Assembly: GCA_028285755.1 (NCBI GenBank)
Contig: JANQOQ010000004.1
Location: 134,720-198,719 of the forward strand
Origin: Puniceicoccaceae bacterium
Lineage (GTDB): Bacteria > Verrucomicrobiota > Verrucomicrobiia > Opitutales > JAFGAQ01
DNA: 64,000 nt
Reading direction: 5' to 3'
The position numbers and the translations under genes are program-made. The stretch's first letter is position 1. Each line of letters starts with the position of its first letter. The notes under the pieces are model-generated. The model searched no databases, was not told the DNA's origin, and saw only the letters and a program-made list of their open reading frames with translations. Of this stretch, positions 5,869 to 60,857 are shown one piece after another.

Positions 5869-6195
5869 TTAATCTACCTTGCAGTATATTTGATAGAGCA
5901 AACCCAGGATACTGCGAACATCATCCCGGGTGACTCTATAAAAAACTTGCTGATGATGCTTCCGGGTGCCCACCATACCCTCTGCACGCAATTTGGCCAG
6001 ATGTTGGGAGAGCGCAGACTGGCTTAAATCCAATTTTGACTGCAGCTCAGAAACCGACAACTCCTCTTCCATCAATAAATGACACAAAATCATGAGGCGC
6101 TGAGGATTACTGAGCGCATTTAGAGTAGCCGCCGCATTGCTGGCCTTATCCAGCATTTCATCGAGATTCAATTCAGAGGGAGATTCTACGGACAT
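5869..6195 (-). CDS. ArsR/SmtB-family winged-helix repressor, two-Cys SqrR/BigR-like (candidate persulfide sensor)
   Basis: 108 aa with HTH ELSVSELQSKLDLSQSALSQHLAKLRAEGMV. The only two cysteines are Cys38 (PQRLMILCHLL) and Cys105 (LLYQIYCKVD). There is no ELCVCDL-type metal site. Confidence 0.85.
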   Translation of the reverse strand: MSVESPSELNLDEMLDKASNAAATLNALSNPQRLMILCHLLMEEELSVSELQSKLDLSQSALSQHLAKLRAEGMVGTRKHHQQVFYRVTRDDVRSILGLLYQIYCKVD

Positions 6196-6211
6196 GATTT
6201 AAAGCTTTAAC

Positions 6212-6232
6212 TATATTAGAACTTTCTAAAAT
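6212..6232. promoter_or_regulatory. Candidate operator, copy 1 (dyad TTAGAA-ct-TTCTAA within TATATTAGAACTTTCTAAAAT)
   Basis: 6-2-6 inverted repeat at 6216-6229, 16 nt upstream of the ArsR-type gene start and about 100 nt upstream of the AlsD-like gene. It overlaps AT-rich -10-like hexamers (TAAAAT, TAATAT). 17/21 positions are identical to the site at 7168-7188. Confidence 0.45.
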
Positions 6233-6331
6233 AATATGCTTATGTCAATCCGTAATTAATTAAGTCGAATTTTTGGGTAACAGTCTTTAGAAAAAGAGCT
6301 ATTACTTCCAAATACCACTATTCTATCACTT

Positions 6332-7117
6332 ATGAAAAAATATTTCGTACACATTTGGGTCACAGTACTGACCTGCATCTATCTTCCTGCCGCTACAGTC
6401 ACCCAGTATTCAAGCTATGTGGGACTTCTTGAAAGACTTTTTGATGGTTTTGTGAGTATTGAGGATGCTATGAACTATGGAGATCATGGTATCGGAACCA
6501 CTCACGCATTAGACGGTGAAGTCATCATCATGGATGGAGAGATATACCGGATAAATTACGAGGGAGCAGTAGAGCGGATCAATCCCAGTGAGCTTACCCC
6601 ATACGTCACCCTTGCATTTACTCCCGAATCCGAGGCGATACCCTATAATCTACCTGCGGGCATAGCCTATGATCAGCTCGCAAATACCCTCCATAAACTG
6701 GATTCCATCGATCGCTTTGCGGAGAATCATGCGTATGCGGTGCGTATTGAGGGGAATTTCAAGTATTTAAAAGCACGTAGTGTTCCCAAGCAAACCAAGC
6801 CCTACCCTTCTCTGATCGAAATCGTGGAAAATCAATCTGTTTTTGAATTTCAGAATGAGAATTTTACCGTCATTGGCTTTTGGAACCCGGAATACGCTGC
6901 TGCCTTTAATCCGCCTAAATGGCATATCCATGGCATTAATCAAACGAGGGACGGCGGAGGACACATTCTTGATTTTATAACCGGGGATGACCTGAAGCTC
7001 TACCTTTGGAAAATGACCTCGCTTCAAATTCACCAGCCGGACACTTTAGAGTTTGAAAGCGCCGACCTAATGAAAGACCGTAGTGCAGACGTTCACCGCG
7101 TGAATAGGGATCAGTAA
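6332..7117 (+). CDS. Alpha-acetolactate decarboxylase family protein with N-terminal hydrophobic (signal/anchor-like) segment
   Basis: 261 aa. ..TQYSSYVGLLERLFDGFVSIEDAMNYGDHGIGTTHALDGEVIIMDGEIYRI.. and ..WHIHGINQTRDGGGHILDF.. match AlsD/BudA N-terminal and His-ligand blocks. The first 22 aa, MKKYFVHIWVTVLTCIYLPAAT, are hydrophobic. Confidence 0.8.
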   Translation: MKKYFVHIWVTVLTCIYLPAATVTQYSSYVGLLERLFDGFVSIEDAMNYGDHGIGTTHALDGEVIIMDGEIYRINYEGAVERINPSELTPYVTLAFTPESEAIPYNLPAGIAYDQLANTLHKLDSIDRFAENHAYAVRIEGNFKYLKARSVPKQTKPYPSLIEIVENQSVFEFQNENFTVIGFWNPEYAAAFNPPKWHIHGINQTRDGGGHILDFITGDDLKLYLWKMTSLQIHQPDTLEFESADLMKDRSADVHRVNRDQ

Positions 7118-7167
7118 ACGCTCCGCCTTTATATCTATAATTTATTAAGGATATTGGTTGACATCAT

Positions 7168-7188
7168 TATATTAGTATTTACTAAATT
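7168..7188. promoter_or_regulatory. Candidate operator, copy 2 (dyad TTAGTA-tt-TACTAA within TATATTAGTATTTACTAAATT), adjacent to a TTGACA -35-like hexamer
   Basis: 6-2-6 inverted repeat at 7172-7185. TTGACA lies at 7158-7163, 4 nt upstream of the 21-mer. The site ends 30 nt before the ATG of the 822-aa ORF. It is the same motif as 6212-6232, with a compensatory A/T to T/A swap that keeps the dyad. Confidence 0.45.
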
Positions 7189-7218
7189 AGATAAAACTAA
7201 TTTTTAAATCCAATTACC

Positions 7219-9687
7219 ATGATACAACCCAATTCAAAAGACTCTGAACATCGACTTGTGATCATTGGCGGTGTCGCCGGTGGGGCTTCTGCCGCCGCGC
7301 GTGCCCGCAGGCTTAATGAGCATGCCAAAATCACCCTTATTGAAAGAGGCCCGGATGTATCGTTCGCAAACTGCGGGTTGCCCTATTACATCGGGGGTGA
7401 AATCCAGGATCGTTCCCGGCTGGCCGTTCAAACACCGCAGAGTTTAATGAGTATGCTCAATATCGAGGTGCTCAATCTGACTGAAGCTACCGAGATTAAC
7501 CGGGAACATAAGCAGGTAAAAGTTCGTTATCTCGAAAGCAAGGATGAGGACACCCTGGAATATGACACTCTGATACTCGCTCCCGGTGCTGCCCCTCTGC
7601 GCCCTCCGCTTCCGGGAGTCGACCATAAGTTAGTATATACCCTGCGCAATCTACAGGATATGGACAGACTTAAGGAGAAAATAGAAACCGTTGACTCCAT
7701 TGTTATTGCTGGTGCGGGTTTCATTGGGCTCGAAGTAGCCGAACAGCTGGCGAATTTGGGCAAACAAGTAAGTGTGGTAGAGCTTCAGTCTCAGATTTTA
7801 CCGCAAGTAGACCCGGAAATTGCACGTCCAGCAGAAGAACGACTAACCGAAGAAGGGGTGAAACTGGTTTTAGGCGATGGTATCTCCCGCTTTGAAGACA
7901 AAGAAGGCTCGATCATTACCGAGTTGGCCTCAGGCAAACAAATCGAGAGTGGCATGGTTTTGCTTTCCATCGGCGTAAGGCCTGAGTCACAGCTTGCTAA
8001 AGAAGCAGGCCTGGAAATCGGTCCTCGGGGGCACATTGTAGTAGATGCCTATCAACAAACGTCGGACCCCGCTATCTATGCTGCGGGAGACGCTGTGCAA
8101 ACAATCGATGCCATTACCGGGCAGCCAACGGCGGTTCCGCTCGGTGGCCCCGCCAATCGCCAGGGTCGCACTGCAGCTGACCATATCTTTATGGGAGATC
8201 AGGCATTGCCCTACCCGGGCTCTTTGGGTACGGCAATCGTACGTGTATTTGATACGGTGATCGGGATTACCGGTTTTAGCGAAAAACGGCTCAAAGCGGC
8301 CAAGATGGATTACAAGACCACAACGGTCACAGCAACCGACCATGCCGGTTATTACCCCGGAGCCATGCAGATGACTCTCAAAATTGCCTGGAACCCGAAT
8401 GATGGGAAATTGCTTGGAGCACAGGCAGTCGGGGTGAACGGCATCGATAAACGCATCGATGTAATCGCAACTGCATTGCGTGCGGGAATGACGATTCAGG
8501 ACCTTTGCCATCTGGAGCTCGCCTATGCACCCCCATTCGGTGCTGCCAAGGATATCGTAAACATTGCCGGGTTTTCCGCCATGAATCTGGAAGACGAGCT
8601 CTATGACGCCGTCTATGAGCTACCGGATGCTGAAGCTGCTCAAATCGTGGATGTCCGCCCCCCGGAGTTGGCAACTATGAAACCCATCGAAGGCTCACGC
8701 AATATACCTTTTGCGAAACTCAGAGACCGTCTGAACGAGCTCGACCGCGAAAAGCCGGTTGTAACCGTATGTGCCCTGGGCAAAACCAGCTATTTCGCAT
8801 CTCGTGTACTCAATCAGGAAGGATTTAAAGCCCAGAGTCTTGTGGGTGGCATGACAGTGATGCCCACGAAGGAAACCAAAAATGACCCAACACCTATGCA
8901 AACCAACGATAAACCCAAAATAGAAAATCAGCCAAGTTCCATTTCCGCAGATAGTATCGTAAAACTGGATGCGACCGGACTCGCCTGCCCCGGACCCATC
9001 ATGCGCGTAAAGCAAAGCGTAGACCAGCTCGAAGCCGGACAGGTGCTCGAAGTGAGTGCAACGGACTCGGGCTTTATGAAGGATCTTCCAGCCTATGCGA
9101 AAAACGCAGGGCTCGAGTTGCTCGACATCTCTCGTGAAGCAGGAGTTATCACCGGTAAAGTTCGGAAGCTGGCTACTGAAAGCGTACCTGCTACCTCTGA
9201 CGAAGCATCTGCAAATAATGGAACAACCCTGGTCGTCTTCTCACAGGATATGGATAAGGCGCTCGCCTCTCTCGTGATTGCAAACGGTGCATTAGCGATG
9301 GGTAAAGAGGTCACCATGTTCTTCACCTTCTGGGGCCTGAATGTGCTGCGCAAGGAATCTGGAGCAACTCCAAAGGGCAAAAGCTTCATGGATCATATGT
9401 TTGGCTGGATGATGCCCAAGGGCATGGGTAAACTACCGCTCTCCAATATGCATATGGGCGGCATGGGCACGAAGATGATGAAGTGGCGCATGGCATCCAA
9501 GAATCTGCCGAATGTGCATGGCCTTATGCAATCTGCACGCGAACAGGGCGCACGTATGGTTGCGTGTTCGATGTCTATGGAAGCCATGGGCATCCGTCAG
9601 GAAGAACTGCTGGACGATATAGAAGTCGGAGGTGTGGCAGACTTTCTCGACGCTACCAACCACTCAAAGGCCAATCTGTTTGTCTAA
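7219..9687 (+). CDS. Four-domain fusion: CoA-disulfide-reductase-type FAD/NAD(P) oxidoreductase + rhodanese + TusA/SirA + DsrE/DsrF-like domain
   Basis: 822 aa. aa 1-450: LVIIGGVAGGASAAARA (FAD), SFANC52GLPYYIGG (CoADR/Nox redox Cys), IAGAGFIGLEVAE (NAD). aa ~470-548: rhodanese with VTVC518ALGKTS. aa ~578-650: LDATGLAC590PGPIMRVK (TusA CPxP). aa ~668-822: DsrE-like with MVAC783SMSMEAMG. Confidence 0.85.
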   Translation: MIQPNSKDSEHRLVIIGGVAGGASAAARARRLNEHAKITLIERGPDVSFANCGLPYYIGGEIQDRSRLAVQTPQSLMSMLNIEVLNLTEATEINREHKQVKVRYLESKDEDTLEYDTLILAPGAAPLRPPLPGVDHKLVYTLRNLQDMDRLKEKIETVDSIVIAGAGFIGLEVAEQLANLGKQVSVVELQSQILPQVDPEIARPAEERLTEEGVKLVLGDGISRFEDKEGSIITELASGKQIESGMVLLSIGVRPESQLAKEAGLEIGPRGHIVVDAYQQTSDPAIYAAGDAVQTIDAITGQPTAVPLGGPANRQGRTAADHIFMGDQALPYPGSLGTAIVRVFDTVIGITGFSEKRLKAAKMDYKTTTVTATDHAGYYPGAMQMTLKIAWNPNDGKLLGAQAVGVNGIDKRIDVIATALRAGMTIQDLCHLELAYAPPFGAAKDIVNIAGFSAMNLEDELYDAVYELPDAEAAQIVDVRPPELATMKPIEGSRNIPFAKLRDRLNELDREKPVVTVCALGKTSYFASRVLNQEGFKAQSLVGGMTVMPTKETKNDPTPMQTNDKPKIENQPSSISADSIVKLDATGLACPGPIMRVKQSVDQLEAGQVLEVSATDSGFMKDLPAYAKNAGLELLDISREAGVITGKVRKLATESVPATSDEASANNGTTLVVFSQDMDKALASLVIANGALAMGKEVTMFFTFWGLNVLRKESGATPKGKSFMDHMFGWMMPKGMGKLPLSNMHMGGMGTKMMKWRMASKNLPNVHGLMQSAREQGARMVACSMSMEAMGIRQEELLDDIEVGGVADFLDATNHSKANLFV

Positions 9688-21078: not shown

Positions 21079-22845
21079 ATGGAACACCCATTTGCTGAAC
21101 AGTGCCAGGATCTCGCTGCATCCATTTTGGCCAATAATCTGAGCGCCATCCAGGAAGATGGTACGGTTCTTCCGGTGGAAGGAGAATCTTCACGCCTGGA
21201 TGAACCGGGTCATGCTGCCCTGGCAATCGGTGAGTATTATAGAGCTACTGGAGAAGCAAAACTCGAGGGCTATGACTTGGTAGACCTAAGTGCCCGCTGC
21301 GTTACCAATCAGGCATTTACCGAGCAGGACACTGATAACGGTATCGCCTACACGGGTCTAGGTTTACTCTCTTTCGGCCCTTCCAAGGAGCGTAATCTCG
21401 TATGGGAGCGCCTGGTTGAGCAAACTCGCGAAAATTTGGATAAAATGCTGCTCCAGCGCAGTCGCTTTGCTCATGACCAACAGGCTTATAACATCGGTAA
21501 AGCAGTGACTCGCTTCAGTATGGGGCTTTCCAAAAAGGATGAGACGGGTAAGCTAATCGAGCGCTTTATCAGCTCTATTCAGGAGCATAGCAGCGCGGGT
21601 TTTGTAGATGCTTTGCCCGAACGTAGTATGGGAGGATGCTTCGACATATGGGGGATCAGCAGCTTTGTATTTATCAGGCAGGCACTACAACTACACAGTA
21701 ATATTCACCTGCGCGATCGCAAACTGCCTACTTTGCGCACCTACGCTGAGAAGTACGTAAAGATCATTCCTGATACGCTACGCATTGACGGCCTTGGCTG
21801 GAATACCGGGGAAGCAGCGGGTGCTTACGCACAAATGCATAGCATCAGCCTCGTGTTGCAGGCCATGCGTGATGAGTGGATTACCGAGGATAAAAAACCG
21901 ATCTTCCTGGATGCACTGCGCAAGCTCTTCTATTACTTCTTTGCAACGTATATCGATCAGGAGACCGGTTATCTTGTAATTCGTGATGCCGAGCGCTCAA
22001 CGATAACCCGGCATACGACCCGCATGGCTAACTTTGACGCCGCGCGCTACCTCAGCCAGTGGGCACGTCTTGCCAAGAGTATCCATGCATCGATCGATGA
22101 TGCGGCTTCCACCAAATCCCGCAGCACGGGCCGTTATATCATATTTGATAAATCCAACAAAAAAGAACAGGGCTTATTCATATACCATAATGCGAGCAAC
22201 GGCCTCGTCGTTCAACTGCCGCTCATCGCTCCCCGTGATACCAATAGCTGTGACAGCCTCGCATTCCCTCACTGTCCCGGTATTTTTGATTGGCCCGTAG
22301 AGCATTTTGTGCCGACTTTGCTGCCGGAACTGACCTTCAATGGCCAGAAGGTAATTCCTGCCTACTATGGAAAGCAATGCGTCACCGGTCTCGGTTTACG
22401 TAATTCTTTTTTCTTTAAATACGAACAACCCGAATTCATTTCAACCGAAGGGGAAATCGTATCGGGCATTGGAAATGTGAAGGTTAAGTGGACCTTTTTT
22501 GAGAACTCCATCCAAAGCGAATTTGTCTACATGGTGAACAATGTCACTCAGATGGATTCATTGGCCTACAATATCTGCCTGAGCGCTCCTCATTCCCGCT
22601 ATACCCTCGGAACTTCGCTTAAACTGGGGCCTGAAAGCCTCCGACCGACTGTTTTGAAAAACGACTTTCAGGCAGAATGGGCAGACAATGAGGTGGTATC
22701 GAACGATCCCAAATTTCGCTCTTACTTTGGAAAAATCCACTACGTACAGGTGCTTCGACGCAGCCACCCGCTAATCATGCGGCCCGGGATCCAATACAAA
22801 CTGGTGATCCAGTTTGAGCCGGACATCCAGTTTGTCGAAGAATAA
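21079..22845 (+). CDS. Hypothetical cytoplasmic protein (588 aa), no family recognised
   Basis: Long uninterrupted ORF with no signal peptide. The helix-rich N-terminal two-thirds and beta-rich C-terminal third suggest, by inference only, an alpha-toroid plus beta-sandwich layout as in some glycan lyases/hydrolases. Confidence 0.6.
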   Translation: MEHPFAEQCQDLAASILANNLSAIQEDGTVLPVEGESSRLDEPGHAALAIGEYYRATGEAKLEGYDLVDLSARCVTNQAFTEQDTDNGIAYTGLGLLSFGPSKERNLVWERLVEQTRENLDKMLLQRSRFAHDQQAYNIGKAVTRFSMGLSKKDETGKLIERFISSIQEHSSAGFVDALPERSMGGCFDIWGISSFVFIRQALQLHSNIHLRDRKLPTLRTYAEKYVKIIPDTLRIDGLGWNTGEAAGAYAQMHSISLVLQAMRDEWITEDKKPIFLDALRKLFYYFFATYIDQETGYLVIRDAERSTITRHTTRMANFDAARYLSQWARLAKSIHASIDDAASTKSRSTGRYIIFDKSNKKEQGLFIYHNASNGLVVQLPLIAPRDTNSCDSLAFPHCPGIFDWPVEHFVPTLLPELTFNGQKVIPAYYGKQCVTGLGLRNSFFFKYEQPEFISTEGEIVSGIGNVKVKWTFFENSIQSEFVYMVNNVTQMDSLAYNICLSAPHSRYTLGTSLKLGPESLRPTVLKNDFQAEWADNEVVSNDPKFRSYFGKIHYVQVLRRSHPLIMRPGIQYKLVIQFEPDIQFVEE

Positions 22846-22964: not shown

Positions 22965-23363
22965 GTGCCTTTAAAAATTACACTCAAACCGGATGAGAAG
23001 ATCTACATCAATGGAGCCTTGCTTACCAATGGAGATCACTCCACTACCCTTTTTGTGGAAAACAAAGTCCGACTGCTGAGGGAGAAGGAAATCATGACTC
23101 CCGACAAAGCGGACTCTGTCTGCAAAAACATCTACCTGGCCATCCAGATGATGTATTTTGAACCTCAGAACGTTCGCAAGTATCACCAAACCTACTGGAA
23201 TCTGGTGAGGCAACTCACTGAGGCTGCACCCAGTACCGCTGAGATGATCCACGATATCAGTGAGAAAATTTTGACTGAAGAGTATTACTCTGCGCTTAAG
23301 AAAACCAAAAAGCTTGTTGAATACGAGCAAACGCTAATGAACCATGCCAAAGCCGCCTTATAA
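22965..23363 (+). CDS. flbT: FlbT-family protein (flagellin translation repressor family)
   Basis: 132 aa with a GTG start. MPLKITLKPDEKIYINGALLTNGDHSTTLFVENKVRLLREKEIMTPDKADSVCKNIYLAIQMMYFEP is co-linear with the FlbT family N-terminal consensus (M.LK..LKPGE...INGAV..NG......N...ILREKDI). Confidence 0.8.
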   Translation: MPLKITLKPDEKIYINGALLTNGDHSTTLFVENKVRLLREKEIMTPDKADSVCKNIYLAIQMMYFEPQNVRKYHQTYWNLVRQLTEAAPSTAEMIHDISEKILTEEYYSALKKTKKLVEYEQTLMNHAKAAL

Positions 23364-23733
23364 CCCCTACGAAAAAACCCAAAAGGATACCTTGCCTGGG
23401 ATAGATATCGAGCTTACCGTGCTTGAAAAAGCTTCGGCCATGTTACGCCGCTGCCAGGAGAATTGGGTAGAAAACGAATTCGACCGATCTCTGGACGACG
23501 CACTGCGATACAATCAAAAGATCTGGGATGTGCTCCAAAACGATTGGCGTAGCAATGATTGCCAGCTTTCAAAATCTTTGCGCGAAAATCTGCTGAGCCT
23601 GGGTATGTTTATGCGCAAAACTTCACTGGATATCATGGCATACCCGGAAAAAGAGAAGCTCAATGCGCTCATCCAGGTAAACGAACACTTGGCTTCCGGA
23701 TTGAAAAACCAGAAACAGAACGTAAACGCCTAA
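23344..23733 (+). CDS. flaF: FlaF-family protein (flagellar biosynthesis regulator)
   Basis: 129 aa. ..ALRYNQKIWDVL.., ..CQLSKSLRENLLSLGMF.. and ..LIQVNEHLASGL.. align block-for-block with Caulobacter-type FlaF (ALHRNREVW.., NQLPDALRAQIISLGLW.., LIAVNRSIMEGL). It overlaps flbT by 20 nt. Confidence 0.7.
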   Translation: MPKPPYNPYEKTQKDTLPGIDIELTVLEKASAMLRRCQENWVENEFDRSLDDALRYNQKIWDVLQNDWRSNDCQLSKSLRENLLSLGMFMRKTSLDIMAYPEKEKLNALIQVNEHLASGLKNQKQNVNA

Positions 23734-57632: not shown

Positions 57633-59252
57633 ATGCAGACGCGTCTACCCCTCCTCTTAAGCCTACTCGCTTTTTTTATATCCTTCACTTACCATGCGAT
57701 CGCTCAGTCTCCCCATTCAGAACGTCCAAATATCATTCTGGTATTGGTCGATGATATGGGTTATTCAGACCTGGGATGCTACGGAAGTGAGATTAAAACA
57801 CCTCATCTCGACACGCTTGCATCGGGGGGTATCCGTTTTAAACAATTCTATAATACCGCACGTTGCTGCCCTACGCGGGCATCCCTGTTGACCGGCCTTT
57901 ACCAGCACCAAACCGGTATTGGGCTTATGACTTCGGGCGGTCGCTGGGACTTTGACTTTGGCGTAGAGGGTTATCGGGGACAGTTAAACCGCAGATGTAT
58001 AACCCTTGCGGAAATTCTCAGACGTGAAGGCTACCACACATACATGACCGGCAAATGGCATCTGGGCGGAAATGATCCGGATGATCTGCCACTCCAGCGG
58101 GGTTTCGACCGGTATTTTGGAACTCCGGCGGGAGCCTCCAGTTTTTTTAAACCGCAGGGCAATCAAAGTCTCTACATGGGAAATGATCGTTTACCCCCGC
58201 CTGATCCGACCACTTTTTACACCACCGACGCATACACCGATTATGCAATCGAGTTCATTGAGGAAAACCCGGCTGGTGAGCCTTTTTTCCTTTATCTTGC
58301 ATACAATGCACCGCATTGGCCTCTCCACGCTAAACAATCGGATATCGAGAAATATGTAGGCAAATACAAGGTAGGCTGGGATCAGCTTCGGAATGCACGT
58401 CTCACGCGCCAGAAGGAGCTCGGCATGATACCCGAAGGCTTTGAGATGTCTCCCCGGGATGAGCGCGTCCGCCCGTGGACGGAGGTTGATAAAGCACAGA
58501 AGATAGAATCCGACTATCGCATGGCGGTATATGCGGCACAAGTCGACTGTGTGGACCAGAACATGGGCAAGCTCATTGCTTTCCTCAAAGAGCGCGGAGA
58601 GTATGAAAATACGTTGATTCTATTTCTATCCGATAATGGAGCATCCCCCGAGCCGCACAATGAATTCGGCGGCCAAACTATCGCGGATATTAATGACCCC
58701 AATAACGGCGGCATCGTGTCCTACGGCATCGGTTGGGCAAATCTATCCAATACGCCCTACCCGCTCTACAAACGACATGCGGAGGAAGGCGGTATTCGCA
58801 CATCCTTCATCGCCCACTGGCCAGCCGGTATCAATGAAGACTTAGTCGGAACATGGATTAGTGGCACAGGCCACATTCTGGATGTGATGCCTACGGTCGT
58901 TGAGATTACTGGTGCTCATTACCCAACGATGCACAAGGGCTCCAGTATTTACCCGATGGAGGGGCATTCGCTTACCCCCTATTTTAGCAAAGGAAAGCGA
59001 CACTTTCAGCCCACCTACTTTTTTGAACATACTGACAATTGCGGGATTCGTCACGGCAACTGGAAAATGGTAAGTCGCTTTGGGGAATTCGACTGGAAAC
59101 TCTACAAACTTGAGAGCGACCCCATCGAACAAGTAAATATCGCGGCGAAACATCCCGACATCGTCTCAGAGCTGGCAGCAGCCTGGCATACCTGGGCAGC
59201 CCGCGTAGGTGCTACCCCCAAAGGCACGCGCACTGAAAACAGCTATCGTTAA
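57633..59252 (+). CDS. Arylsulfatase (Cys-type formylglycine sulfatase)
   Basis: 539 aa with a signal peptide. ..PNIILVLVDDMGYSDLGCYG.., ..ARCCPTRASLLTG.. (CxPxR) and ..LFLSDNGAS... Confidence 0.9.
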   Translation: MQTRLPLLLSLLAFFISFTYHAIAQSPHSERPNIILVLVDDMGYSDLGCYGSEIKTPHLDTLASGGIRFKQFYNTARCCPTRASLLTGLYQHQTGIGLMTSGGRWDFDFGVEGYRGQLNRRCITLAEILRREGYHTYMTGKWHLGGNDPDDLPLQRGFDRYFGTPAGASSFFKPQGNQSLYMGNDRLPPPDPTTFYTTDAYTDYAIEFIEENPAGEPFFLYLAYNAPHWPLHAKQSDIEKYVGKYKVGWDQLRNARLTRQKELGMIPEGFEMSPRDERVRPWTEVDKAQKIESDYRMAVYAAQVDCVDQNMGKLIAFLKERGEYENTLILFLSDNGASPEPHNEFGGQTIADINDPNNGGIVSYGIGWANLSNTPYPLYKRHAEEGGIRTSFIAHWPAGINEDLVGTWISGTGHILDVMPTVVEITGAHYPTMHKGSSIYPMEGHSLTPYFSKGKRHFQPTYFFEHTDNCGIRHGNWKMVSRFGEFDWKLYKLESDPIEQVNIAAKHPDIVSELAAAWHTWAARVGATPKGTRTENSYR

Positions 59253-59258
59253 TTCTTT

Positions 59259-60857
59259 ATGAAGCATTTTTTGATTTGGGCAGTTGGAGCTTTTCTGACT
59301 ACGTCTTCTCTATTCGGGAATAAGGCACAACCGAATTTTCTATTCATCGCGGTAGACGATCTGAATGTTTACAACACAGTACTCGGGGATCACCCATCCA
59401 GTTTCCTCACTAAAATTTATCCGGACGACTCTCTCCGCAAAGACGTCGTAAAAAGACTCACTCCGAATATCCAACGCTTATCGGACCTGGGGCTTACCTT
59501 TAATAACGCATTCTGCCCCTACCCGCTCTGTGGCCCATCCCGCACTGCGTTGCTGACCGGGGTTCCGCCCCATGTTTCCGGCTACTACGAGCACGACCGG
59601 CATTTTCGCGCGTATCAGACGCTGACCAAAACGATTACCTTACCCGAGTTCCTCAAAAAGAACGGATACTACACAGCCGGTATTGGCAAAGTATTTCATA
59701 AGGGGCGATCTTATCTGGATCGAGGATACTTCTCGGATTGGCCTGACCAGCTATACTCCTGGTCGGATTGGGTTGAAGCGAATTCAGGCACCGGCCGCAC
59801 TGCCGGCTCAAGCGTTCCATTCGAAGAGAAGCGCTCGAAATACTGGGATCAGCAAGGACGATCCCCAACCAACTTTACAAGATTTGGAGTCACTAATCTA
59901 CCTCAGGAAGAGAGTAATGACTACGAGAACGCACGATTCATAGCTGATTTAATGGTAAATAGGAAAGCCACTATCGTGGATATACAGCGGGAAAAGCGAA
60001 CTCTAAAGCTGCCCGAAAATACTCCCTATTTCCTGGCATGCGGCCTGTTTGCTCCCCATTTGCCATTTGTAGCTCAGCAGGAATATTTTGACCTTTTTCC
60101 CCAAGATGAAATGGCAATCGGGGATGAACTCCTGAATTGGATCCAGGAAGACCTCAAAGACCTTTCGCAAACCGCTCAGAACATGACAAGTAACACCCAC
60201 TTCAGTCGGCTCCTCAAATTTGGAAAAACCCTGGATGGTACCGGCGGTGATATCAACGCCTGGAAAGCCTATTTTCAAGCCTACCTGGCGACCATTGCCT
60301 ACAGTGATCACAATATCGGGATGCTCGTGGACGCCATCGAAGAGAATCCACAGCGTGAGAATACGATTGTATTTCTCTGGAGCGACCACGGATATCACCT
60401 GGGGGATAAAAACCGCTCTGGCAAAACCACACTGTGGGAAGCTGCTAATCACAGCAATCTGATCATTTATCACCCCGCATTAGAAGGGGCTAATCGGGGA
60501 TTAAGGACAGATGCTACCGTGAGCCTGCAGGACATCTACCCAACCATTGTAGCGCTTGCGGGATTAGAGCGCCCGGCACATATCTACGGTTTTAATCTTA
60601 AGCCCATTCTTAAAGATCCAGATATCGATTGGCCTCATGCGGTGCTCAATACCAATGGAGAAGGCAACCACTCCCTGAGAACACAGAACTATCGATACAT
60701 CCGCTTTAAGAACGGAGATCAGGAGCTCTACGCTCTTAAAAAGGACCCGCTCGAATATGACAACCTGGCAAACCTAGAAAAATACCAGGATATGCTCGAG
60801 CAGTTCAGCAGGCAATTGGATCAGCGGCTGGCGATGGGTCCTCGCGATTTCAAATGA
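59259..60857 (+). CDS. Sulfatase (Cys-type formylglycine sulfatase)
   Basis: 532 aa with a signal peptide. ..PNFLFIAVDDLN.., ..PLCGPSRTALLTG.. (CxPxR) and ..FLWSDHGYHLG... Confidence 0.85.
   Translation: MKHFLIWAVGAFLTTSSLFGNKAQPNFLFIAVDDLNVYNTVLGDHPSSFLTKIYPDDSLRKDVVKRLTPNIQRLSDLGLTFNNAFCPYPLCGPSRTALLTGVPPHVSGYYEHDRHFRAYQTLTKTITLPEFLKKNGYYTAGIGKVFHKGRSYLDRGYFSDWPDQLYSWSDWVEANSGTGRTAGSSVPFEEKRSKYWDQQGRSPTNFTRFGVTNLPQEESNDYENARFIADLMVNRKATIVDIQREKRTLKLPENTPYFLACGLFAPHLPFVAQQEYFDLFPQDEMAIGDELLNWIQEDLKDLSQTAQNMTSNTHFSRLLKFGKTLDGTGGDINAWKAYFQAYLATIAYSDHNIGMLVDAIEENPQRENTIVFLWSDHGYHLGDKNRSGKTTLWEAANHSNLIIYHPALEGANRGLRTDATVSLQDIYPTIVALAGLERPAHIYGFNLKPILKDPDIDWPHAVLNTNGEGNHSLRTQNYRYIRFKNGDQELYALKKDPLEYDNLANLEKYQDMLEQFSRQLDQRLAMGPRDFK

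Follow-up and report, generated by a model that had tools for sequence, protein, structure and literature searches.

Candidate reactive-sulfur response locus with an HlyU-type ArsR regulator and a four-domain reductase-sulfurtransferase fusion in a Puniceicoccaceae bacterium

Proteins that join a flavoprotein of the CoA-disulfide reductase type (CoADR; CoA, coenzyme A), a rhodanese (Rhd), a TusA, and a DsrE domain on one chain form an abundant family, on which the data so far amount to one genome-based proposal and one genetic study. The architecture was described in 2012 for Pcar_0429 of Pelobacter carbinolicus, together with a proposed persulfide relay from Rhd to TusA to DsrE and a reduction involving NADH and FAD (PMC3543383). 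In 2018, BF638R_0572 of Bacteroides fragilis (CoADR 14-440, Rhd 462-540, TusA 589-657, DsrE 671-825) was reported to be derepressed 50-fold in a bmoR mutant, the MarR-type BmoR being a protein that binds the promoter of the operon (PMC6158253). No enzymology of the four-domain form was found in the literature. In this study, we analyzed a locus of this kind in a 64,000-nucleotide stretch of DNA from a Puniceicoccaceae bacterium (hereafter the window; GenBank assembly GCA_028285755.1, contig JANQOQ010000004.1, positions 134,720 to 198,719), in which the gene for an 822-aa four-domain enzyme lies 1,023 bp from the gene for a 108-aa ArsR-family regulator. An earlier reading of the same DNA, made from the sequence alone (the sequence-only reading), had placed the two open reading frames correctly, about 1 kb apart, but had taken the architecture to be unstudied, which the two reports above correct.

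As for the regulator, the ArsR persulfide sensors grouped as ‘SSN cluster 4’ are defined by a pair of cysteines in helices α2 and α5 (PMC10509353). Upon reaction with persulfides, HlyU forms a tetrasulfide and releases its DNA, an effect that is not seen with H2O2 or glutathione disulfide (GSSG) (PMC10509353). BigR (from Xylella, Agrobacterium, and Acinetobacter) and SqrR from R. capsulatus have the same fold and the same cysteine pair as the window regulator, and they follow the same logic, i.e., a repressor beside a gene for sulfide or persulfide metabolism. However, their targets are Blh/PDO or SQR, whereas the target here would be a fusion of a reductase with a sulfur relay. HlyU belongs to Vibrio and has no sulfur-enzyme genes as neighbours, in contrast to the window regulator, whose candidate sites precede a sulfur-enzyme gene in a host that is not a Vibrio. 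CoAPR, a reductase related to the enzyme, is controlled by the CsoR-family protein CstR and not by an ArsR protein (PMC9405070).

On the basis of these comparisons, we consider it fairly probable that the locus is a reactive-sulfur (persulfide/polysulfide) response unit that works by the mechanism proposed below. The four-domain architecture, the idea of a relay, and control by a neighbouring repressor were already known, and the enzyme family is widespread; what is new, and is a modest addition, is the pairing of an HlyU-type persulfide sensor and a candidate operator with the four-domain enzyme. To judge from the published descriptions, BF638R_0572 and Pcar_0429 have the same four domains as the window enzyme, and the domain boundaries of BF638R_0572 are nearly equal to its own. 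Like the window gene in the proposed model, the BF638R_0572 gene is under a local repressor. However, BmoR is a MarR-type protein encoded downstream in the same operon, whereas the window has a divergent cluster-4 ArsR gene with a defined candidate operator. The locus ties the enzyme to a sensor class of well-defined chemistry.

The fused enzyme and its family

When the check with hidden Markov models that had been suggested for the 822-aa protein was run, Pfam recovered the predicted domains in the predicted order, all above their gathering scores: Pyr_redox_2 (residues 12-297), Pyr_redox_dim (341-441), Rhodanese (464-546), TusA (582-650), and DrsE_2 (669-821). Residues 12-546 align over their full length with the Shewanella loihica persulfide reductase Npsr (3nta, E = 2.6e-146), and also with Bacillus anthracis CoADR-RHD (3icr) and Enterococcus faecalis CoAPR (8a56), the E values ranging from 1e-133 to 1e-146. 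In the alignment with Npsr, Cys52 is the cysteine of the SFANCGLPY motif and Cys518 that of the rhodanese loop. This part of the protein belongs to the class I pyridine nucleotide-disulfide oxidoreductases that have one redox cysteine, and it is followed by a C-terminal rhodanese with a catalytic cysteine. Whereas Npsr, CoADR-RHD, and CoAPR end after the rhodanese, the window enzyme continues for ~275 more residues, which hold the TusA and DsrE_2 domains. Residues 476-822 in turn can be aligned from end to end with P0309, a Rhd-TusA-DrsE_2 protein of 359 aa that stands alone in Jeotgalicoccus (Staphylococcaceae), at 39% identity (E = 3e-80). The three cysteines of the two proteins correspond, and residues 476-822 have the CstA-type order of rhodanese, TusA, and DsrE-like domain, each with a conserved cysteine. 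CstA-type proteins stand alone, without a reductase, and the likeness to them was measured against P0309 as their representative. Because residues 12-546 match Npsr and CoAPR and residues 476-822 match a CstA-type protein, the enzyme combines, at the sequence level, a reductase of the CoAPR/Npsr type with a relay of the CstA type around a single, shared rhodanese domain, and the fusion of CoAPR-like and CstA-like parts suggested earlier is borne out at that level.

The nearest-homolog counts given here, for the enzyme and the regulator alike, cover the 120 listed database matches of each. The listed enzyme matches are 56-63% identical to the window protein and, like it, carry their domains on one chain of ~800-850 aa, with Pyr_redox_2, TusA, and DrsE_2 in all of them and rhodanese in nearly all. 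The four cysteine motifs picked out by the sequence-only reading are present, and Cys52, Cys518, Cys590, and Cys783 are invariant (120/120), whereas a fifth cysteine, Cys430, varies. The linkers between rhodanese and TusA (547-581) and between TusA and DsrE_2 (651-668) are essentially unconserved and therefore fit flexible tethers. Conservation reaches further in an alignment of 44 sequences (A1), composed of the query and 43 divergent representatives of 50%-identity clusters: Cys783 is kept in 44/44, Cys518 and Cys590 in 43/44 each, and Cys52 in 38/44, the flavoprotein domain being found in 43 sequences, the rhodanese in 40, and TusA and DrsE_2 in all 44. In P0267, P0276, P0279, P0318, and P0315, the position of Cys52 is occupied by A, S, P, or N, and the rhodanese, TusA, and DsrE cysteines are kept. 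These full-length representatives may form a subfamily that works by another chemistry, unless the alignment is faulty at the N-terminal end.

The nearest enzyme homologs come from Puniceicoccaceae and other Verrucomicrobiota (63% identity), and the sources among the listed matches include Coraliomargarita, Cerasicoccus, Puniceicoccaceae, Sulfuriroseicoccus, Desulfococcaceae, and others; the proteins are named merely ‘FAD-dependent oxidoreductase’. A search with the TusA-DsrE tail gave 243 representatives at E < 1e-30, and ~42 of the best 150 are full-length fusions. A metagenome scan yielded at least 586 confirmed relatives, some from human-gut assemblies, and the family spreads over dozens of clusters at 50% identity. 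The genome-contig search with the single 822-aa protein found one distant locus, in a Victivallaceae genome (L001). One 864-aa protein (P0407), in the fusion cluster of P0244, comes from the EukProt dataset of Chlorochromonas danica, where its presence could be due to contamination or horizontal transfer.

The regulator and its candidate operators

The regulator is an ArsR-type winged helix-turn-helix protein within the usual ~100-120 aa. Its matches to HTH_5 (E = 4.8e-13) and to HTH_20 (E = 4.3e-9) exceed the Pfam cutoffs, and it scores 83.5 bits with NCBIfam NF033788 (cutoff 55). As had been noted, Cys38 (..MILCHLL..) and Cys105 (..YQIYCKVD) are the only cysteines in its translation, and a metal site is lacking: there is no CXC motif in the regulator, whose α3 region reads EELSVSELQSKL, and the α5 metal ligands are absent as well. 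Its top solved relative is V. cholerae HlyU (4k2e, E = 4.6e-26), followed by V. vulnificus HlyU (3jth), NolR, Xylella BigR (7.8e-18), E. coli YgaV, and R. capsulatus SqrR (1e-15). Identity is 48-50% to HlyU (50% for the V. cholerae protein), 40% to BigR, and 36% to SqrR. The sequence-only reading had asked for an alignment of the cysteines with the BigR/SqrR sensing pair. In that alignment, Cys38 and Cys105 fall unambiguously in the columns of both sensing cysteines of BigR and SqrR (C41 and C107 in SqrR), and of V. cholerae HlyU as well (C38 and the C-terminal cysteine), so that the α2/α5 pair of cluster 4 is present. NolR, which is not a sensor, has Asp and Gly in these columns. Both cysteines are kept in the nearest homologs of the regulator (120/120), and the recognition helix, SQSALSQHLA-LR, is common to the regulator and HlyU.

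Palindromes adjacent to the two genes had also been mentioned, and they exist. One TTAG-N6-CTAA palindrome (O1) lies in the 136-bp divergent region between the regulator gene and an acetolactate-decarboxylase-like (alsD-like) gene, and a tandem pair (O2) ends 18 nt before the ATG of the fusion gene. The three copies fall in 237 bp of intergenic DNA, where composition-matched shuffles (25% G+C) lead one to expect 0.009, and none of 200,000 shuffles placed three copies in the two intergenic regions. The whole window contains four copies, against 0.66 expected, and three of the four are in these two regions. The fourth, at 60480, lies within a sulfatase gene and was taken as a chance occurrence.

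The same motif recurs with the regulator type. In four independent loci of regulator homologs (L012/L013, L014, L015, and L016), TTAG-N6-CTAA occurs once per ~10-kb locus, in the regulator's own divergent promoter and usually in the form ACTAA-A-TTAG-N6-CTAA. None was found in L001-L011, which have other regulator types or none. The background is low, as 684 kb of metagenomic DNA from other fusion loci contain nine copies (~1.3 per 100 kb), none of them upstream of a fusion gene; a match in L053 was rejected as an operator, as it sits inside a truncated gene. The hlyO operator of V. cholerae HlyU, TATAAATTAATTCAGACTAAATTAGTTCAAA (methods of PMC10509353), contains TTAATTCAGACTAA-A-TTAGTTCAAA, and thereby has the same unit-A-unit tandem layout and the same core as O2. 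Taken together, the rarity of the motif by chance, its presence at the homolog promoters, the HlyU recognition helix, and the layout of hlyO make direct binding of the regulator at the enzyme gene likely, and the occurrence of the motif at every close regulator homolog examined supports direct control. The sites at the sulfur-enzyme gene stand downstream of a -35-like hexamer and upstream of the start codon, a position that suggests repression rather than activation. The operators also link the regulator to the enzyme gene, in agreement with the earlier view of the two as one unit. That view had placed the genes next to each other; they are indeed ~1 kb apart, but the alsD-like gene between them had gone unmentioned.

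Proposed mechanism and alternatives

Starting from the family memberships, from the aligned and conserved cysteines, and from the presence, position, and conservation of the operators, we propose the following mechanism, in which the persulfide signal, the repression, the direction in which the sulfur flows, and the chemistry of the reductase are transferred by homology. The reduced dimer of the HlyU/BigR-type ArsR protein would bind O1 at its own promoter and O2, in tandem, over the promoter and leader of the enzyme gene, so that both of these genes, and possibly the alsD-like one as well, would be repressed. When sulfane sulfur accumulates, a tri- or tetrasulfide would link Cys38 in α2 to Cys105 in α5 of the same protomer, a bridge that is proposed because it has been shown for HlyU, BigR, and SqrR. 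The bridged regulator would leave the DNA, and the enzyme would be made. In the enzyme, Cys783 of the DsrE domain and Cys590 of the TusA domain would capture sulfane sulfur as cysteine persulfides and hand it across the flexible linkers to Cys518 of the rhodanese, and the Cys52/FAD site of the flavoprotein would reduce it to H2S with NAD(P)H, probably via a CoA mixed disulfide.

If an HlyU-type sensor has taken the place of the usual regulator of the enzyme in this lineage, a somewhat doubtful possibility that is taken up below, the locus would be natural genetic evidence that sulfane sulfur, and not general oxidative stress as considered in B. fragilis, is the physiological substrate and signal of the family. 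The enzyme would be a self-contained machine for the capture and reduction of persulfides, with the rhodanese as the hinge shared by a CstA-type relay and a CoAPR-type reductase. If persulfide does release the regulator and the enzyme does reduce persulfides, the family as a whole could be given a function, the B. fragilis enzyme included, which is now filed under oxidative stress, and HlyU-type regulators would reach beyond the control of virulence.

Several observations weigh against the proposal. The flavoprotein scores 436.5 bits with the NCBIfam CoA-disulfide reductase model TIGR03385, below the cutoff of 578.8, and is related to CoADR without being a canonical one. The regulator scores 92.3 bits with the BigR equivalog NF040642, below the 155-bit cutoff, and because of this it is best described as a clade relative nearest to HlyU and not as a BigR ortholog; the earlier label ‘SqrR/BigR-like’ is right as to the two-cysteine clade, but not as to the nearest relative. 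HlyU has been described as an activator of toxin genes that acts through relief of silencing, and repression is an assumption here. Upstream of the fusion gene, a promoter scan recognized no complete promoter of the sigma-70 type, and the promoter assignments are tentative because the scan gave fewer promoter-like sites (3) than shuffled sequences did (5.8) and none in that place. The genes of the nearest regulator homologs are divergent from a gene for a small YgaP-like-TM protein (PF11127), followed by RND or MMPL efflux genes, with no sulfur enzymes beside them. As the PF11127 and RND/MMPL neighbours and the single TTAG-N6-CTAA between the divergent genes recur at L012, L014, L015, and L016, they suggest that a regulon of the HlyU type, serving a membrane or efflux system, is conserved in environmental bacteria.

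The distribution of the regulators beside the enzyme has to be considered as well. In six of the seven homolog contexts that were looked up, all from Verrucomicrobiota, the fusion gene is directly preceded on its own strand by an ArsR gene, and the other neighbours all differ. About half of a sample of 80 metagenomic fusion loci (L017-L096) have a small ArsR, MarR, or CsoR-type regulator adjoining the fusion gene, including ~15 ArsR and ~8 MarR upstream, and ~14 MarR-type downstream, the last being the B. fragilis arrangement. A local small regulator is thus the rule for this enzyme family; in the window it is encoded divergently at a distance of 1 kb, and copies of the candidate operator stand at the enzyme gene. 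However, the ArsR proteins next to the fusion in related Verrucomicrobiota are of a different subtype, which lacks the α2/α5 pair, has a conserved HFC(H/D) motif, and matches the generic ArsR/SmtB model only. They were rejected as orthologs of the window regulator, having no cysteine at either sensing position. A cluster-4 regulator was found at none of the ~87 other distinct fusion loci, and the operator motif stands beside the fusion gene in none of the 80 metagenomic loci, so that the combination of a cluster-4 HlyU-type sensor and its operator is seen only in the window among ~88 loci. It is possible, though somewhat doubtful, that a persulfide-specific HlyU-type sensor and its operator replaced the usual ArsR subtype of the enzyme in this lineage.

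Another point against the proposal is that the sole genetic phenotype reported for the enzyme family, the diamide sensitivity of a bmoR BF638R_0572 double mutant, was read by its authors as a sign of a CoA-based role in general thiol/disulfide balance (PMC6158253). The window locus could be a unit for general thiol/disulfide (oxidative) stress, in which the main task of the enzyme is to maintain CoA, or some other low-molecular-weight thiol, in the reduced state, whereas the regulator senses oxidants or disulfide stress and not persulfides in particular. The best NCBIfam match of the N-terminal half, a CoA-disulfide reductase, is in line with such a role, as are the thioredoxin genes directly before the fusion in three loci (L001, L080, and L095). 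However, a plain disulfide reductase would have no need for three sulfur-carrier domains with strongly conserved cysteines, and the CoADR equivalog cutoff is missed. Furthermore, of the enzymes with a solved structure, the closest ones (Npsr and CoAPR) reduce persulfides, and HlyU, the closest characterised relative of the regulator, responds to persulfides and not to H2O2 or GSSG (PMC10509353). We therefore regard a general thiol/disulfide stress unit as unlikely.

A sulfur-delivery relay, in which TusA and DsrE pass sulfane sulfur to acceptors that serve biosynthesis or the oxidation of sulfur, while the flavoprotein fills or empties the relay without release of H2S, seems less likely still. 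The absence of adjacent genes for DsrC, sHdr, tRNA-thiolation, or molybdenum cofactor (Moco) acceptors in the window speaks against it, as does the invariance of the redox cysteine in the window protein's own subfamily, even though TusA and DsrE proteins are established sulfur donors in oxidative pathways (PMC11094781 and PMC4175335), a cluster of Pyr_redox_2, DsrC, and DrsE_2 genes lies 2-4 kb downstream of the fusion in L011, and five representatives keep the relay cysteines without the redox cysteine of the flavoprotein.

The enzyme could also serve energy metabolism and not detoxification, as a respiratory or dissimilatory sulfur or polysulfide reductase of the kind proposed for Npsr and for Pcar_0429, the latter having been put forward as a possible terminal S0 reductase (PMC3543383). 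The top solved match is the NADH-dependent persulfide reductase of S. loihica, and homologs occur in Desulfococcaceae and in metagenomes from anaerobic digesters and sediments. The family is, however, also common in Verrucomicrobiota that do not respire sulfur and in gut metagenomes, and the window has no membrane or electron-transport partners adjoining the gene. A dedicated stress-type sensor and a locus of two or three genes amid housekeeping genes fit detoxification better, and we consider a respiratory role very improbable.

Finally, we give hardly any credence to a coincidental adjacency, in which the control by the regulator extends only to its own gene and, perhaps, to the divergent alsD-like gene, with the fusion gene under separate regulation, because, despite the unrelated gene in between, the different neighbours of the closest regulator homologs, and the absence of this regulator type from the other sampled fusion loci, two tandem copies of a clade-specific motif stand just upstream of the fusion start codon, in a concentration that the shuffles never reached and that is far from the metagenomic background.

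Features of the locus and its surroundings

The features of the reactive-sulfur response unit proposed here are compiled below together with those of related loci and of the remaining window.

Table 1. Coordinates in the window, and in homolog loci (L numbers, own coordinates) where indicated
Feature	Position	Strand	Evidence or remark
ArsR-family regulator gene, HlyU/BigR/SqrR two-cysteine clade, 108 aa	5869-6195	minus	HTH_5, HlyU alignment
Cys105 codon of regulator	5881-5883		
Cys38 codon of regulator	6082-6084		
Weak promoter-like match TTAACT-17-AATAAT	6207-6235	plus	Consensus match only; O1 in its spacer
Candidate operator O1, TTAGAACTTTCTAA	6216-6229		TTAG-N6-CTAA palindrome, 20 nt upstream of regulator start codon
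alsD-like gene, 261 aa	6332-7117	plus	PF03306, E = 6e-59
Perfect TTGACA hexamer, tentative -35 of fusion gene	7158-7163	plus	Read from sequence, just upstream of O2
Candidate tandem operator O2	7172-7200		TTAGTATTTACTAA (7172-7185), A, TTAGATAAAACTAA (7187-7200)
Four-domain enzyme gene, 822 aa	7219-9687	plus	Pfam, PDB relatives, conservation
CoADR-type flavoprotein	7252-8571	plus	Cys52 codon 7372-7374
Rhodanese	8608-8856	plus	Cys518 codon 8770-8772
TusA	8962-9168	plus	Cys590 codon 8986-8988
DsrE_2	9223-9681	plus	Cys783 codon 9565-9567
588-aa open reading frame	21079-22845		No Pfam match
Flagellar regulators FlbT/FlaF	22965-23733		
Tandem sulfatase genes (n = 2)	57633-60857		
Regulator homologs divergent from YgaP-like-TM (PF11127) genes	L012 4706-5354, L014 3102-3752, L015 4685-5288, L016 4695-5342		One TTAG-N6-CTAA between the divergent genes
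R(H/L)FC(H/D)xF ArsR genes	L002 5648-5959, L005 5616-5960, L007 4629-4973, L008 4602-4922, L010 4648-4974, L011 4630-4935		27-80 bp upstream of fusion, same strand as fusion
Third ArsR subtype	L029, L038, L044, L048, L054, L055, L057, L061, L064, L091; L060		Upstream of fusion; downstream in L060
Thioredoxin genes	L001 5582-5935, L080 3566-3934, L095 3392-3715		Directly upstream of fusion; WCGPC in L001
Pyr_redox_2, DsrC, DrsE_2 cluster	L011 9394-11525		Downstream of fusion

The alsD-like gene sits between the regulator gene and the enzyme gene and shares the divergent promoter region that bears the operator. Its match to TIGR01252 is at the threshold (180.7 against a cutoff of 180.65), and in its protein the N-terminal segment (MKKYFVHIWVTVLTCIYLPAATV) is hydrophobic and the WHIHG...GGHILD motif is intact. 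There is no gene for an acetolactate synthase near it, and the promoter/terminator scan gave no terminator-like site between it and the fusion gene. The gene may be part of the regulon, and it is possibly repressed too, because O1 falls in the spacer of the weak plus-strand promoter-like match. The regulator, alsD-like, and enzyme proteins are all singletons at 90% identity.

Among the neighbours of the fusion gene in other genomes, the Verrucomicrobiota ArsR subtype with an R(H/L)FC(H/D)xF motif in α5 is distinct, and it may be an uncharacterised class of thiol-based sensors dedicated to the four-domain enzyme. A third ArsR subtype beside the fusion, with the pattern HPxRLCIV ... (G/S)xCNV ... 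xxC(L/M), has its α2 cysteine shifted by two residues and two cysteines in α3; it is possibly another redox or sulfur sensor. Many of the ArsR neighbours in the 80 metagenomic loci are of this third subtype, and the α2/α5 pair occurs in none of them. In 2 of the 80 metagenomic loci, a gene of the CsoR family (PF02583, Trns_repr_metal), to which CstR belongs, lies upstream of the fusion, and such neighbours would lend independent support to the persulfide link. The thioredoxin genes that stand in the regulator's place in three loci hint at a thioredoxin partner for the fusion enzyme, in line with the link to trxP reported for B. fragilis. The cluster in L011 (Verrucomicrobiaceae N1E253), composed of Pyr_redox_2 (422 aa), DsrC (104 aa), and DrsE_2 (164 aa) proteins, could represent a related sulfur relay in split form.

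The rest of the window is taken up by housekeeping and polysaccharide degradation, with genes for a PAPS reductase, a sigma-54 activator, RpoN, Rho, FlbT/FlaF, RecD2, a DXP synthase, and two sulfatases, and Rfam gave no matches at the gathering threshold over the whole window. The sulfatases and a 3-keto-disaccharide hydrolase fit an organism like the marine, polysaccharide-degrading Verrucomicrobiota.

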